A stretch of DNA of 64,000 nt from a phage. Position 1 is the stretch's first letter; the number at the start of each line of letters is the position of its first letter. The DNA is taken from NCBI GenBank assembly GCA_018509705.1, contig GCA_018509705.1_3630.1; one strand, 5' to 3'. The notes under the pieces are model-generated. The model made no database searches. It was not told where the DNA came from and saw only the letters and a list, made by a program, of their open reading frames with translations. The position numbers and the translations under genes are program-made. Below are positions 41,549 to 57,076 of the stretch, in pieces.

Positions 41549-43034
41549 CACACAATTAGCTACCCGGCTAAAGTGCTGGGAGCACCTATAACACATCTTT
41601 CAACTAAATTTCCCACCACCACAATCACTTACCTCCCACACATGACTGTTTGCTTGTTTAGTGAGCAGTCATGCCTTGACATTCTTGCCTATCCTGATAA
41701 AATTAAGTTCTTCTCTTTTCTTTTACCGAGTAATTCGGGTTTTCTGTTCTCTTCGGTTTGAAGGGGGTATGGAGATACACCTGAGTGAACAGGGTGAACA
41801 ACCGAACCATTGGCTATGGCATTAGCATGGCGAAGCGGACGGGTGACGAAAGAGGGGCCGGAGGACACCAGTCACTGCCATATGATATATGGGTGATAAC
41901 CTGAAGAATCTGAATAAGTGTTTAAGTACCAGTCAGAGGAAAAGGTGAATGGTAGCTGAAGGGGAGGGGGGTTTCTTGTATCTTTAATTTGTATATTATG
42001 TATACACTTGTAAACCAATTTCATCTGAATCTGTTTACCACACAAAGTGGATAGAGACAAATATTACCTATTAAACTTGAATTATTTATAGAAAATACCA
42101 CAACACCACTTAAGTCTTTGATTTTACACACAAATCCTGCAGATATTCAACCTCCATATTTAACATACTTGTAACATATTCCATACTCTACCTGCCTGAT
42201 CAATTTCCCCAACTACATCCCCCATATTTTCCCTGTCTGTACTACCCCTGCCCCGCCGGGAGTCCCGTCATATCTGGCTTTCCAGCAAATATCACACCCA
42301 CAAATATCATTGCCTGAAGAGGGTTTCATCCCATAATACCTGCCTTGCCTGAAGAGGGTTTCATACGCCACGTAAATTTTTTAATTGACCCCTCCCCGCC
42401 GCCGGAAAGGTTGGCTTTTCTCGCACAGACCTGAAGAGTCAGCCAGAAATATCTGAATAGGCCCAATTCTACCCCGATTTTGACCTGACCTACAGGAGCG
42501 CTGCCCTGTCAGGAGCCGTAGCGACTGGAGTGCTGCCAGGCGGACGAAATGGGAATACTTCTCATTCTTATAACAATTCTCAAATATCGAGGCAGTGAGG
42601 CAAATTAATAGGCCAGGCCGTTCACACAGTGGCACAACATTTGCAACCTATCCTGTGGGGATGAATGAGAATACCTATCATTGTGAGAACCATTATCATT
42701 ACGGGCAATTTAACATAATACCCATTATGCGCACCACTGGCGATACATACAGGGATTGATAACATGGGTTACTGTTTACGCACATAACAATTATATTTCT
42801 TACCATTTGTGTGGGATATAGTTAGCAGCCGATAGATTAGATATTAACCTGCAGACTTCTGACCGTCCAGACGTCTAAACGCCCACACACCAAGGATTAT
42901 ACATACACTCCTGAATGTAAACAGGGCCGCAAAAATGCTACCATACAAGCTTGTAAATTTTTCATGCAGCACTTGACAAAGAGGAGAAAAACTTGTCTGA
43001 CATAATGTGACCTAACTGACACAACATGACACTT

Positions 43035-43121
43035 TTACACACCTATTAGTTTACACACTGGATTGTTTACATTCCTGATTGTTCACATGCTAACCATTTA
43101 CATGATTGACTGTTTACACAC
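43035..43121. repeat. Six phased iteron-like repeats of TTTACA/TGTTTACA at about 16-bp spacing
   Basis: Copies begin near 43035, 43050, 43066, 43082, 43099, 43112. Confidence 0.6.
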
Positions 43122-43130
43122 CGATAATCA

Positions 43131-43394
43131 GCCATGCCATTCGTTTGCATGACAATAATTATACATGACAATAATCGCACTGATTATAATTAGCATGACA
43201 TAATATAAAAGCAGGGCAACTATTAGCAGATCTATAGTTGCCTTGCTTGTCATGTCATGATTAACTAAATACAAGGCAACTATGATCTGATTAATAGTTT
43301 GCAGACAAACTATCACGGGGGTGATGGTTACTGCTTTTATATTATGTCGCGACTCCGTCGCGCCATGCCATTCGTTTGCATAGTTGCCTTATTG
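43131..43394. repeat. Composite dyad region: 20-bp direct repeat GCCATGCCATTCGTTTGCAT (43131-43150, 43362-43381) framing an 18-bp inverted repeat and multiple GCAACTAT sites
   Basis: Inverted arms GACATAATATAAAAGCAG (43197-43214) and CTGCTTTTATATTATGTC (43331-43348); GCAACTAT in both orientations. Confidence 0.7.
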
Positions 43395-43991
43395 TTACAG
43401 ATAAAATAATTGTATTGTTAATTATTTCTTATCTTTCTATTAGTCATCTAATGATTTCAGTTAATATAGTAACGTACAGTAAACATTAGACGACTAAAGA
43501 TTTCTCTGCTTATGGTAACCTAACGTGACAATTCCAGACTGTTTACGAAAAATGTTGACACCTGGGCCGATTTATGTTATGCAGTTTACACGAATAATTA
43601 TTTTATGCAGGTATTGACTATTCCGTTATTCTATGGTTGGAATAAATGCTTAGCAGGCTATAGAATGGCGAGCGTACGTAAATTCTGAGATCTGGCGGCT
43701 ATAGTTATACTCGATTTTTCACGTAGAAAACGCTTTTGTAGTTATGTAAGTGTATGACTTATAAAGATTTTTAGTTGTTGACAAGCTATTGAAGATATGC
43801 ATCAGGTTAAATTTTGTGCAAATGCTGCATTATGTGCAATTTTGGAAGGAAAAACGTGTAAAAATGGCCCTGCTACCACACAATGAAAAATTATGCAATA
43901 GTTATTTTATATGTATGTTTGTACAGTGGGGTTAATTGCTGGCTTGTTGATTATTCCATTTGCCAGGCGGGGCCATTTGTGGTAGGAAAAG

Positions 43992-44640: not shown

Positions 44641-44851
44641 AGTGTTTTCCTCTCTCCTGGTTATTGTGTGGGCACTTTTGCCCCTTCAAGATAAATGTTA
44701 CCCCACCCCATGGCAGATGTCAACGGTTTTTATAGTTCTTATATGACAGGCAGGCCCGGTGATTGTCTCCACCCGTCGCCAGGTGCCTGCCGTGAAACAA
44801 GTATAACAAAAAACAGGACCATTGCAAGCCCTGTTTTGTAGTTTATAAGGA

Positions 44852-52811: not shown

Positions 52812-53210
52812 TTATTCGTGGGCGCATGTTACAATGTGTTTTTTATAGCCCAGGTGGTCAGCAAGTGCCGACAAAAACTCTTCTTCGTAGATCCAGCCGT
52901 CGGCAGTGATCCCCATAGCATTTAATGCGCTCTCAAGTGCTGCGTTAGCTTTATCGTAACCGTGACCGCTCGCCTTGCCGCCAGTATAACCGTACTTATT
53001 GTTCTTGTTGTCGTGAATCCAAAACACGCAGTAGTGAGTGTTCCCGCTGGCGGCGGCATAATACCGGATCTCAGCTACTTCGTGCAAATTATTGTCATCG
53101 TCCAGGCCCACCAGATTATAAGCCTTGTAAAATCCACGATCACGGCGGCAGTTCTTGACATCAGAAAAAGAAAAGTCCGCATTATCAAAATTAAAGGTAG
53201 TGGTTTTCAT
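52812..53210 (-). CDS. Hypothetical protein
   Basis: 132-aa ORF. Confidence 0.45.
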   Translation of the reverse strand: MKTTTFNFDNADFSFSDVKNCRRDRGFYKAYNLVGLDDDNNLHEVAEIRYYAAASGNTHYCVFWIHDNKNNKYGYTGGKASGHGYDKANAALESALNAMGITADGWIYEEEFLSALADHLGYKKHIVTCAHE

Positions 53211-53274
53211 GATTTTATCCTCTTAGTGTCTTTTGTGTTTTTAGTGTATTTGGTGTCGGACTATATGTCAATAC

Positions 53275-53472
53275 TTATTTTTTATTAAACCAGTGGTTGA
53301 TCTGTCCTTTTGTCAGGGCGCAACGATTAAGCTGTTGCCGGGTATAGCTCTGACCGCGACGGAATTTATAAAGGCCTTGCCCGTTGTTGATGGTTACGTC
53401 CACCTGGCAAACCATTTGATCGGTGACCACCTGGCGAGTGTTGCGACGTACTTTGATCCCGTATGCGTTCAT
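53275..53472 (-). CDS. Small basic protein
   Basis: Start reset to internal Met with AAGAGGA RBS because a promoter overlaps the track start. Confidence 0.4.
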   Translation of the reverse strand: MNAYGIKVRRNTRQVVTDQMVCQVDVTINNGQGLYKFRRGQSYTRQQLNRCALTKGQINHWFNKK

Positions 53473-53522
53473 AAATTTATCCTCTTTACTGGTTAGTGCG
53501 GTGTTGTTCACCTTGTAGGGTA

Positions 53523-53550
53523 ATAATACCATGATTAACCTTGTTGTCAA
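53523..53550 (-). promoter_or_regulatory. Sigma70-type promoter on - strand (TTGACA-16-TATTAT)
   Basis: Read directly on reverse complement. Confidence 0.5.
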
Positions 53551-53837
53551 CGATTATTTTAAATTATTTTTATGATAGAATCCACCTGCCGCCCCCGCCA
53601 GGTTAACCACCATTTTTTCGTACTCTTCTTTATGTTCCCGCGCTTCTGTATCATTAATCACTACATTTCCCAGGTGAGTAGCATTACCTTTCATTTTTGT
53701 ACCTCCTCTTCAATTGTTTACCCTACAGCATGGGCCTACCAGGTTTGCAAGATTTCACCCTCTCCCACCTGGTCAGTTAGGTCCTGCCAGGTTGCAACGG
53801 TTAGCGCATCAGGTTAGAAAAATTTTTTGAAAAGGTG

Positions 53838-53866
53838 TTGACAGCGGCCCCGCCAGGGGGCACAAT
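53838..53866 (+). promoter_or_regulatory. Sigma70-type promoter on + strand inside the - strand block (TTGACA-17-CACAAT)
   Basis: Exact -35; no + strand ORF downstream. Confidence 0.4.
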
Positions 53867-54293
53867 ATACCTATCGAAAGGACGGCAGGCACCGGTGACG
53901 GGGGAGACAACCACCGGGGATGGGCGCTGCATAAAATGAGAACGGTTATCATTATCATTTAAAAATTTATGCAAAAAATCCTTGCCTTCTTTGTCCTGTG
54001 TGATACTATAATAACAAGCCGGGGCAACAGGGGCCGGGAGACAATCACCGGGCCTGCCCGTTATTCTGCAAACGAGAATGATTATCATTCAAAATTCTAA
54101 ATGAGAACTCCTCGCATTTAATAAATTTAATTAGCATGCTAATTACCCTCCGTAACAATTTCCTATAAAACAGTATCCCATAAAATATTCCCATATAGAA
54201 ATTTTAAAAATCCATTTCTGAAAACGAAAAATCGATTTCGTCCCCAAAAATTTCAGGTCGAGAGCTGGAACGATTTCCAGAAAATCCGATTCA

Positions 54294-54389
54294 GAAAACG
54301 AAAAACAGATCGAGTACTTGGAAATTTATCGAGAAAAATTTTCAGAAAATTCAATCTTTGAAACGAAAAACAGATCGAGTACTTGGAAA
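54294..54389. repeat. 30-bp direct repeat GAAAACGAAAAACAGATCGAGTACTTGGAAA (two near-identical copies 65 bp apart; degenerate third copy near 54219)
   Basis: Read directly in 1-kb non-coding island. Confidence 0.75.
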
Positions 54390-54694
54390 GCTGTACCGCA
54401 ACTTCAAGATAGTGGCTGGATTATTGCCATAAAAGGCCAAGGGCGAGTGGGAAAGTTCTGGTAGAAGGGTGTGAGCATACGCGGAAAATCTGGAATGGTA
54501 GCCCGGAATATGACGCAAACGATAGGATGAGTGGTTCAGCTCATCGTGTCTACCCTGAAAAATCCATTTTAGTTTTCGATCCGTTTTCTGATTTTCTAAG
54601 AATTTTAAAATATCTGGCCTGGTGAAATATCAAAAAGGAGGAAATCCATTTTAGAAATCCCCCTTATACTTGATATGCCAGAAATTTTCAAGTA

Positions 54695-55024
54695 TCAGCT
54701 ATCTTTGTTTTTAGGTTTATACATGCGGAGAGGTATAGTCTTTGTAACATTCCACTTCCTCAACCCTTCCCAGCTCCAATTGTGGGCGTGGTATCCGGTT
54801 ATGCATGCACTGCTAGAGTGATCGTAAGCATAAGAGAACGCTAAGCGCACCAGGTGAGGCCAGTCCTTCCACGGTTGTGGCCCGTAAGCTTTTCTCCAAC
54901 ACCGACACAAACTAAATGTCTCAAGGATAGGAAGGATAACAAACCCATACACTGTAACCAAAATAGTCAGTGCAATGATTGTCAGGAACACATACCCTGC
55001 AGTTGAAATGATGATCTCTGTCAT
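54695..55024 (-). CDS. Membrane protein
   Basis: N-terminal hydrophobic segments (IIISTAGYVFLTIIALTILVTVYGFVILPI). Confidence 0.45.
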   Translation of the reverse strand: MTEIIISTAGYVFLTIIALTILVTVYGFVILPILETFSLCRCWRKAYGPQPWKDWPHLVRLAFSYAYDHSSSACITGYHAHNWSWEGLRKWNVTKTIPLRMYKPKNKDS

Positions 55025-55218
55025 TTGTCGTCCCCTTTCTTACGGATATAAATGTGAGAACCTGCCTGTATATAAATTTCTCGACCATCTTCTGCAAAGA
55101 TGTGGAATACACGATCACCTTCGTACTCGATACGAGATATCTTCATGATTGTCTTTCCACCTGGGATGCGGATCTCGTCTCCCACAGCGATGTTCCATGC
55201 AGATTTAAGCTTAAACAT
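55021..55218 (-). CDS. Hypothetical protein
   Basis: Start reset to internal Met with AAGGAGGG RBS. Confidence 0.4.
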   Translation of the reverse strand: MFKLKSAWNIAVGDEIRIPGGKTIMKISRIEYEGDRVFHIFAEDGREIYIQAGSHIYIRKKGDDK

Positions 55219-55456
55219 CCGCACCCTCCTTTGGGAACTCGAATTCTGGCATAGCCATATACGCCACAACAGGGTTGTAATCAAAGTAGAAATGACCGTT
55301 AATTATCCCAGTTTTGTGAGCATAGTCACCAGATCCTGCAAGAACAACCTCGCAAACTCCGAAATCCACCTTGCCATTCTCATCTGCCATGGCTACAATA
55401 TACTTTCCTAGAGGCATGTTTTTAACGCCGTCTACAAATGTCCACCCTTTGTTCAT
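55211..55456 (-). CDS. Hypothetical protein
   Basis: 81-aa ORF. Confidence 0.4.
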   Translation of the reverse strand: MNKGWTFVDGVKNMPLGKYIVAMADENGKVDFGVCEVVLAGSGDYAHKTGIINGHFYFDYNPVVAYMAMPEFEFPKEGADV

Positions 55457-56518: not shown

Positions 56519-57076
56519 TCAACACTTTTTGTACTCCACCACGATAATATCCATATCAAAAGTGGCAAGGTTAATAACGTCCTCTACGTGCTCCCACTTC
56601 AAACCGCCTATGCCGCACCCGATCTTAGGGATGTAGAATGGTAAAGTCGATCCACTGAATACCTCATTGACTAGCTCAAAGCCTTTCAGGATTGAGAAAT
56701 ATTCAGCATTAGGTCCTGGGTAGAACTGAGTATACAGATTGATTCCGTAGACAATACCTCTCGGAGATAAGTGCTCCCATCGGGAGAACGCACCCAGTTT
56801 ACTTAGGCAACCATGTCTGGTCTCTTTGTCAGCTGCCAATGCTTGAGGGAACTCACGGGTAATCTGTTTTGCTATCCCCTTGCCCATTGTGTGGAAGCAG
56901 TTACAACCGTGGATCAGGTGACCAGCACCACTCTTAAAAAGGGAGATTAAATCTCCCTCTACAGTATCAATAATCACGGTATTCCAGCTCCTCTTCTGCA
57001 ATTTCCAAAAACTCATCCCAACCCTGTGGCATATTTGAGTTGCCGAAGTGGCTTTCGTAGTAGAGATTTTTACCAC
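56519..57076 (-). CDS. Macro-domain protein (ADP-ribose binding/processing), putative
   Basis: HGCNCFHTMGKGIAKQI resembles the macro NAAN..GGG motif; PKIGCGIGGL resembles the glycine-rich phosphate-binding loop. Confidence 0.5.
   Translation of the reverse strand: MVKISTTKATSATQICHRVGMSFWKLQKRSWNTVIIDTVEGDLISLFKSGAGHLIHGCNCFHTMGKGIAKQITREFPQALAADKETRHGCLSKLGAFSRWEHLSPRGIVYGINLYTQFYPGPNAEYFSILKGFELVNEVFSGSTLPFYIPKIGCGIGGLKWEHVEDVINLATFDMDIIVVEYKKC

Follow-up and report, generated by a model that had tools for sequence, protein, structure and literature searches.

Transcription-activated replication origins are known from phages such as T7, with its primary origin, and T4, with the iteron-bearing oriE and with oriF/uvsY, and the lambda origin contains four dyad-symmetric iterons next to the oop RNA. 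In the nut system of lambda and the put system of HK022, promoter-proximal hairpins with a conserved loop are repeated behind several early promoters. Operators of the host regulator Fur usually act where they overlap a promoter. Here, we analysed a 64,000-nt stretch of phage DNA (NCBI GenBank assembly GCA_018509705.1, contig GCA_018509705.1_3630.1; hereafter the window), in which a gene-free island of ~1.0 kb (53695-54694) sits within a leftward block of small early genes. The island resembles the origins of T7, T4 and lambda in its tandem promoters, which point into an AT-rich stretch with repeated putative protein-binding sites, and in its short transcripts, known from predicted promoters, which would run opposite to the main early transcription. 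With nut and put it shares a promoter-proximal hairpin with a conserved loop, present behind several early promoters. An initial annotation of this DNA had proposed a pair of small regulatory RNAs (sRNAs) or a second iteron region. We tentatively read the island instead as the form that a conserved cis-acting control region takes in the rV5 genus, a Fur-gated and rightward-transcribed hub.

The source phage is rV5-like and belongs to Vequintavirus. The region shares 96.5% identity with Escherichia phage ime and 85-95% with about 120 further rV5-like Vequintavirus records, and the rV5 counterpart of the island spans 116657-117672. Within-genus constraint was assessed in an alignment of nine rV5-like genomes. 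The part holding the promoters, the segments behind them and the palindromic boxes of the island (53838-54135) shows 96.7% mean pairwise identity with 93% of its columns invariant, and three direct repeats further right (54195-54389) reach 93.4%, compared to 78-85% in the flanking genes and 73-77%, with many indels, in the internal spacers. Since these non-coding blocks are more identical than the flanking genes, they are under stronger selection than the neighbouring proteins; hence, the non-coding blocks of the island are subject to purifying selection.

Conservation extends beyond the genus. Positions 53973-54130, with a core at 54034-54125, are 70-88% identical in Seunavirus (PVP-SE1, GAP31), Mydovirus, Certrevirus, Henunavirus and Phapecoctavirus, the last of which is placed in a different subfamily. 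The homologous sequence is almost always unannotated, and at least 360 phage records from Vequintavirinae and Stephanstirmvirinae match the PVP-SE1 version. All genomes examined share a gene-free island, ~0.8-1 kb long and at the matching place, with its elements in one order: one or more + strand sigma70 promoters, GC-rich transcribed segment(s), one to four boxes, then three direct repeats and short repeats. Several genera have a further promoter between the boxes and the CGATCGAG(A/T)AC repeats. The other genera also have a distinct first transcript, termed RNA1 (ACGCCACCCCACGGCG...GGATCGCCGG), which is missing from the rV5 genus, where a diverged second copy of the second segment takes its place.

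All strings quoted in the initial annotation were found at the positions it gave, among them two segments described as paralogous. They are indeed related, sharing a 17-nt core (94% identity) and a 33-nt box segment in their 3' part (73%), and they belong to a widely conserved element. We found that the segments are copies of one cassette, in which a sigma70 promoter is followed by a GC-rich dyad of ~50 nt, whose core GGAGACAAYCACC is invariant, and then by one or more palindromic boxes. The core lies ~20-30 nt past the predicted start and the boxes ~23 nt further on. The cassette is present three times in the window, with copies A and B in the island and copy C at 44.7-44.8 kb on the opposite strand. 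A covariance model built from 17 sequences gives 49.8 bits for copy A (53880-53932, + strand; core GGAGACAACCACC at 53903-53915), 81.2 bits for copy B (54014-54066, + strand; core GGAGACAATCACC at 54037-54049) and 39.3 bits for copy C (44743-44835, - strand; core GGAGACAATCACC at 44770-44758). These are its only convincing matches in the 64 kb, besides a degenerate fourth unit at 42504-42569 (E = 0.03). The strings that mark copy A are GGGGAGACAACCACCGGGG at 53900-53918 and AATGAGAACGGTTATCATT at 53935-53953, and those of copy B are GCCGGGAGACAATCACCGGG at 54033-54052 and AACGAGAATGATTATCATT at 54071-54089. Predicted minimum free energies amount to -21.9 kcal/mol (z = -1.7) for copy A and -27.4 kcal/mol (z = -2.7) for copy B. 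The motif GGAGACAANCACC occurs in the window three times exactly and four times when up to one mismatch is allowed, against 0.35 expected; one exact occurrence lies at 44758-44770 on the - strand. Among copies A, B and C, the arms flanking the core vary, yet stay self-complementary. The cassette motif (GGAGACAAYCACC) is a new conserved nucleic-acid motif.

Copy C lies outside the island. Its promoter P_C, TTGCAA(44827-44822)-16-TGtTATACT(44805-44800), overlaps a terminator-like hairpin; downstream lies another promoter, TTGACA(44723)-17-TAACAT, with the gene 44640-44368. The -35 element of P_C falls into the loop of this hairpin (AACAGG...CCTGTTTTTT), an overlap of terminator and promoter, and two GenBank records annotate the site as a 'terminator'. 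At the same position, 6-9 kb away from the main island, a copy on the opposite strand is kept in Phapecoctavirus, in Certrevirus and in IMG/VR contigs that by similarity or length resemble Mydovirus and Erwinia phages; a box follows it again in these phages. Pattern scans of IMG/VR for the box and for the cores of RNA1 and of the hairpin otherwise gave mostly chance matches, true homologues being restricted to a few large contigs. As a host element, the cassette was rejected: a hairpin-plus-box scan of 185,579 bacterial species genomes in GTDB yielded six scattered, chance-like matches, none of them in Enterobacterales.

The promoters in front of copies A and B are credible by comparison. P_A (53838-53866, + strand) reads TTGACA-17-CACAAT, exactly as initially annotated, and was called independently by a promoter scan; its hexamers are retained in eight of the nine genus members, the remaining one having CAAAAT as -10. 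The second site, noted before as promoter-like near 54000 (TGTGATACTATAAT, present at 53998-54011), can be read as TTGCCT-16-TGaTACTAT overlapping TATAAT. This promoter P_B (53982-54012, + strand) has its -35 TTGCCT at 53982 and its -10 at 54004-54009, with a single substitution in the -10 of two of nine genus members, and by position it is the homologue of promoter P2 of the other genera, where TTGCAA-17-TATATT occupies the corresponding place in 20 loci. The hexamers and their spacing are near-invariant within the genus and kept across genera while the sequence of the fixed-length spacer changes. Within the reading proposed here, P_A and P_B are likely active promoters, and the segments have promoters of their own, as expected of sRNA genes.

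In the presumed RNAs, the conserved 3' halves (AATGAGAA...TTATCATT) make better sense as sites on the DNA, as candidate Fur operators. A set of 25 distinct boxes from 12 phages gives the consensus AATGAGAATGATTATCATT, which forms a 7-1-7 dyad TGAgAATnATTaTCA. In the Baichoo-Helmann model, the Fur box is reportedly a 7-1-7 inverted repeat TGATAATnATTATCA; the boxes of the window agree with it at 11-12 of 14 positions, one phage has a perfect TGATAATgATTATCA, and a perfect TGATAATGATTATCA occurs in locus L157. Compared to the 19-bp Fur consensus GATAATGATwATCATTATC (PMC3423075), the box consensus matches at 14 of 16 overlapping positions. Box A (AATGAGAACGGTTATCATT, 53935-53953) fits the phage box consensus at 15 of 18 positions, and an overlapping 19-mer at 53938 fits the Fur consensus at 15 of 19; scores at 53932, 53938, 54068 and 54074 range from 13 to 15 of 19. 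Boxes B1 (54071-54089) and B2 (54100-54118), found by the box scan, are spaced by 29 bp, and three further boxes (42548, 42664 and 42682; 42548-42700) lie in another non-coding island. Four boxes with up to three mismatches are found in the window against 0.10 expected, and all six that score at least 14 of 18 fall into these two non-coding islands. The boxes occur in arrays of one to four palindromes, phased at exactly 29 bp in every genus, with a single box in PVP-SE1 and Hena1.

When 5,426 complete genomes of E. coli were searched with a two-box segment, it matched only between yhhY and yhhX, in intergenic DNA of the E2348/69 lineage. This site is the ryhB promoter, directly upstream of GCGATCAGGAAGACC. 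The BLAST E-value of this match is 5 and not significant alone; its weight comes from the single best match falling on a Fur operator. The phage sequence TGCAAATGAGAATGATTATCATT is identical to E2348/69 at 21 and to K-12 at 20 of 22 positions, and box B1 with its flank agrees with the ryhB operator at 19-20 of 22. Fur represses ryhB via such a box, and that Fur binds the ryhB Fur box was demonstrated experimentally in Klebsiella pneumoniae (PMC3423075). The phage and ryhB sites have TGC(A/G)AATGAGAATGATTAT(T/C)ATT in common (20-21 of 22 including flanks), and both are 7-1-7 dyads TGAgAATnATTaTCA. They differ in placement: the ryhB operator blocks initiation from a position overlapping the spacer and -10 of the promoter, whereas the phage boxes lie at ~+55 to +110 relative to the starts predicted for P_A and P_B and at ~-60 to -90 from the third promoter of other genera, are arranged in 29-bp-phased arrays, and occur in a virulent phage. 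Box sequence and phasing are constant in two subfamilies with diverged proteins, which fits a slowly evolving host factor. The boxes are candidate Fur operators by every sequence test available, and they probably bind Fur.

To the right of the boxes follows an AT-rich stretch (54119-54194), with a GC content of 26% in 54075-54224, the lowest in 51-57 kb. It leads into three direct repeats of ~57 nt with the core GAAAACGAAAAACAGATCGAGTAC (54194-54389, + strand; starts at 54194, 54268 and 54333), whose family identities are 61%, 100% and 82% at spacings of 74 and 65. What had been annotated as two 30-bp direct repeats with a degenerate third copy is hence a three-member 57-nt family, conserved from rV5 to PVP-SE1, and homologous triple repeats with CGATCGAG(A/T)AC are present in PVP-SE1, Mydo, POP15 and PBES02. 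The repeated motifs seen further right in the initial annotation correspond to AAATCCATTT(T) at 54208, 54560 and 54642, with a variant at 54282. A fast-evolving spacer (54390-54557; 73.5% mean pairwise identity, many indels) separates the repeats from conserved block III (54558-54665; 95.6% identity), which has AAATCCATTTTAG at 54560 and 54642 and contains an inverted partial copy of the repeat core at ~54573-54597. As in iteron regions, at least three repeats in the same orientation adjoin the stretch of 26% GC. The suggestion of a second iteron region is therefore borne out with regard to the three direct repeats and the inverted partial copy, but AT-richness is the only other origin hallmark that we could make out.

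We tentatively propose that these parts act together in a Fur-gated hub. From P_A and P_B, host RNA polymerase would transcribe rightward and so oppose the leftward early operon, and Fe2+-Fur bound to the boxes, at ~+55 to +110 from the predicted start of P_B, would gate transcription into the AT-rich stretch and the repeats. Thereby, the iron status of the host would set the activity of a cis function located there. This function would most plausibly be transcriptional activation or priming of a replication origin; alternatively, rightward transcription might interfere with, or exert antisense control over, the leftward early transcripts crossing the island. Binding of Fur, gating of transcription or a roadblock to it, and a role of the repeats are what we infer from the arrangement of the sites. 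A wider claim would be that a virulent lineage of at least 360 genomes (Vequintavirinae and Stephanstirmvirinae) has wired ryhB-type Fur operators into its early non-coding control regions, either for iron sensing, with Fe-Fur gating early transcription or the firing of an origin, or as a replicating Fur sponge that derepresses iron acquisition by the host, with the new promoter-proximal hairpin GGAGACAAYCACC as part of the switch; we regard this as doubtful.

Several observations weigh against the proposal. We found no credible promoter overlapping the boxes on either strand. Their 29-bp phasing is no multiple of the 6-bp Fur hexamer and could instead reflect an initiator or repressor of the phage. 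In the rV5 genus, copy C has no box, and the invariant 13-nt core is given no role in the proposed mechanism. With regard to an origin, the cumulative GC skew keeps falling over 51-57 kb with a local plateau only and no turn, DnaA boxes (TTWTNCACA) are not enriched (9 against 9.1 expected, none in the island), and Pfam and PHROGs reveal no recognisable initiator or regulator domain in the neighbouring proteins. Moreover, the island at 42-43.8 kb contains a tighter repeat array with a 16-bp period, which speaks against an origin role of the island studied here. The domain matches obtained for neighbours were Macro (56519-57076), NADAR (a neighbour in phAPEC8) and DUF7170 (in other genera). The Macro match of the early protein 56519-57076 (- strand) is weak (E = 1.7e-6), and the other large open reading frames (ORFs) tested in the 45-60 kb block gave no Pfam family.

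Do the cassettes encode RNAs instead? Two, or with copy C three, trans-acting sRNAs could be made from P_A, P_B and P_C as short hairpin RNAs whose exposed loop GGAGACAAYCACC recognises a target of the host or phage by pairing or binding, but we consider this unlikely. Comparatively supported promoters directly upstream would suit such genes, as would the invariant loop-like core between arms that change among the copies and remain self-complementary. When 33 distinct sequences were aligned under guidance of the model, the outer stem ATAGCG/CGCTAT reached 82% pairing with four pairs changed on both sides, and RNAalifold keeps only this stem (three compensated pairs); fold z-scores of the dyad sequences range from -1.1 to -3.3. 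RNA1 of the other genera, with one covarying GC/AU pair and a possible pseudoknot, can be added on this side. In the fold and covariance analysis suggested at the outset, however, covariation for a shared fold is weak: the inner helix is only 58% paired, pairing overall comprises 73% of cells compared to 72% in shuffles, and the covariation score of 0.145 is equalled by slid controls (0.136-0.140). Folding shows no strand preference either, the + strand being more stable in 12 of 21 sequences, and G-U asymmetry gave no signal for strand assignment. No intrinsic terminator or other 3' end was found after copy A, B or C, by eye and in a + strand scan of 53000-55300, and copy C runs into the next promoter and gene. 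Rfam gave no match for the whole window at gathering thresholds and no meaningful match for the island and three homologous loci at E-value thresholds of 1 and 5, so that the Rfam search suggested at the outset remained without a hit even when relaxed. A trans-target search with the 13-nt core retrieved no standout or enriched complementary site in the window, and pairing with RyhB is not significant. Accordingly, a RyhB sponge was rejected, as duplex energies against RyhB are no better than those of shuffles. Owing to the missing terminators, the weak covariation and the lack of strand bias, free-standing sRNA genes are not well supported; of the initial interpretation, the + strand promoters, the paralogy of the segments and the repeat array behind them are supported. 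As the most conserved feature of the dyad is its core sequence, above its pairing, the dyad may function at the level of RNA, of single-stranded DNA or of a double-stranded site for a protein.

If the Fur resemblance were coincidental, the palindromes and the CGATCGAG(A/T)AC repeats could be initiator sites of an iteron-type, transcription-activated origin. The exact 29-bp distance of the one to four palindromes, the 26% GC stretch followed by three direct repeats and an inverted copy, the tandem promoters pointing into this region, the conservation of the whole architecture and, in GAP31 and Mydo, an adjoining gene annotated as DNA ligase would all agree with this. It is nevertheless about as unlikely as the sRNA genes: an identity of 20-21 of 22 positions with the ryhB operator including its flanks is hard to call chance, and the region comes without an initiator-like neighbour, a change in skew or an enrichment of DnaA boxes, while the 42-43.8 kb island appears more origin-like. 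In comparison with the phage origins described above, the island also has no known initiator and no skew signal, and its repeats are units of 57-74 bp with an 11-13-bp core instead of iterons of 17-22 bp. Less probable still, the boxes might serve as a Fur decoy, with six operators per genome, multiplied by replication, titrating Fur and derepressing host iron uptake and RyhB, and with promoters and hairpins as a separate matter. The boxes do match a validated host Fur site and lie in non-coding DNA without overlapping a recognisable promoter, and multicopy Fur boxes, shown experimentally for K. pneumoniae to titrate Fur, are known to derepress Fur-regulated genes, the principle of the Fur titration assay (PMC3423075). 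A decoy, however, needs neither the fixed distance of ~23 nt after the hairpin core nor strict 29-bp phasing, and some genera (PVP-SE1, Hena1) have a single box. Processive antitermination of the nut or put type, in which the nascent promoter-proximal hairpin modifies RNA polymerase for read-through of downstream terminators, seems very improbable to us. The hairpin always lies 20-30 nt past the predicted start, copy C precedes a gene, and the core contains GACAA, which we take to be the loop of P22 boxB and count in favour of antitermination. Yet the loop comprises 9-11 nt or more and is thus much larger than the pentaloop, the inner stem is poorly conserved and covariation weak, the alignment reveals no conserved boxA-like element, and neither a cognate protein is known nor an N- or Q-like protein found among the neighbours. 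Least credible of all are small protein genes, as annotated in several records (e.g. rV5 gp193 and gp194). There are - strand ORFs of 31-95 aa in the island, some called by annotators, but records disagree in their calls, the 95-aa ORF lacks a Shine-Dalgarno sequence and has its start within box B1, and the near-invariance at all codon positions is a non-coding pattern. Since the homologous DNA of other genera has 1- and 2-nt indels, the small ORFs annotated inside the island are not credible.

The left border of the island is set by a 46-aa early gene (53554-53694, - strand), which lies outside the element, has a strong Shine-Dalgarno sequence (GAGGAGG-6-ATG) and is annotated in relatives. 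The gene-free stretch within the - strand block initially placed at about 1.1 kb is thus real, but shortened to ~1.0 kb by this gene. The gene is length-polymorphic, being 34 nt shorter than the 57-58-aa version of rV5, FV3, Gotham and others. Between it and P_A lies a variable spacer with CCWGG/CCAGGTT units (53700-53837; 77% mean pairwise identity with indels among the nine rV5-like genomes). Six CCWGG (Dcm) sites fall into 53560-53870, four of them into the spacer, making this the densest 300-bp stretch of the window; they partly form CCAGGTT units, and the stretch varies by indels between relatives. One such site is located within the spacer of P_A (CCCCGCCAGG), and the promoter spacer of PVP-SE1 gp201 holds its reverse complement. 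Several records (e.g. MG065655, OR786310, PP430345 and PP357458) start or stop in the island or within ~2 kb of it, possibly because assemblies broke at its repeats. About 16-20 MG0656xx records are labelled 'Campylobacter phage' with C. jejuni as host, a label that appears doubtful given ~90% identity to E. coli rV5- and phAPEC8-like phages in this region. No tRNA or tmRNA was found.

The islands of the other genera contain additional elements. RNA1 (ACGCCACCCCACGGCGAAAAGGCGGGGCUAAC...GGAUCGCCGG) is ~100 nt long (1336-1440 in locus L006, ~1320-1420 in L130, L131 and L133), combines an invariant CGCC/GGCG hairpin with one helix that covaries 5:5 between GC and AU, and gave no Rfam match; a possible loop-to-downstream pseudoknot changes from CCCC/GGGG to CCA/TGG in two divergent phages. 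Immediately upstream of the P2 -35 (~1437-1458 in L006, and in homologues) the non-rV5 genera have GTAAA-N5-GTAAA with a variable N5, except for Henunavirus (Hena1), whose second pentamer is degenerate. This motif presumably fits the CpxR consensus; no such CpxR-type box is present in the rV5 island. At the head of the island, other genera have a small + strand gene under a promoter of its own (PVP-SE1 gp201, DUF7170; 1097-1279 in L006), with homologues in GAP31, Mydo and KpS11 and no counterpart seen in the window.

A second, larger gene-free island at 41900-43800 is the counterpart of the 2.6-kb 'non-coding' box (104013-106618) of the rV5 genome paper, which describes only this box and not the island studied here (PMC3606486). 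It harbours six TGTTTACA(C/T) repeats with a 16-bp period (43034-43118), exact 20-nt repeats at 42310/42345 and 43131/43362, and the degenerate hairpin-plus-box unit at 42504-42569. A switch in transcription and skew was reported for rV5 at its counterpart (PMC3606486), and the 42-43.8 kb island looks more origin-like than the one under study. A functional non-coding RNA locus has been described in a phage of the same subfamily, the pseudo-ToxI of phiTE with its tandem 36-nt repeats (PMC3475682). A type III antitoxin mimic of this kind was rejected for the island: pseudo-ToxI is another locus, at 106.7 kb by the tRNAs and terminase, whereas the phiTE homologue of the island lies at 39.6 kb, and the repeats of the island are 57-74 nt apart and of unrelated sequence.

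In the searchable literature, we found nothing on the island, its cassette, its RNAs or Fur boxes in these phages. Cis-regulatory regions, sites of host transcription factors on phage DNA and promoter-proximal hairpins are known categories; their combination is new, and so is its presence in a virulent phage lineage. The rV5-like and phAPEC8-like phages are used in therapy cocktails, for O157 control and as models (BASEL collection), and their early regions are almost entirely 'hypothetical'. The island is constrained more than its surrounding genes in hundreds of genomes, yet remains unannotated or is mis-annotated as small ORFs. Judging from its candidate operators, the phage probably reads or manipulates the iron status of its host. 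If the boxes bind Fur, they would directly link host iron physiology to a strictly lytic phage programme, and since iron is limiting in the gut and at infection sites, such a link, if true, could affect phage efficacy in vivo.

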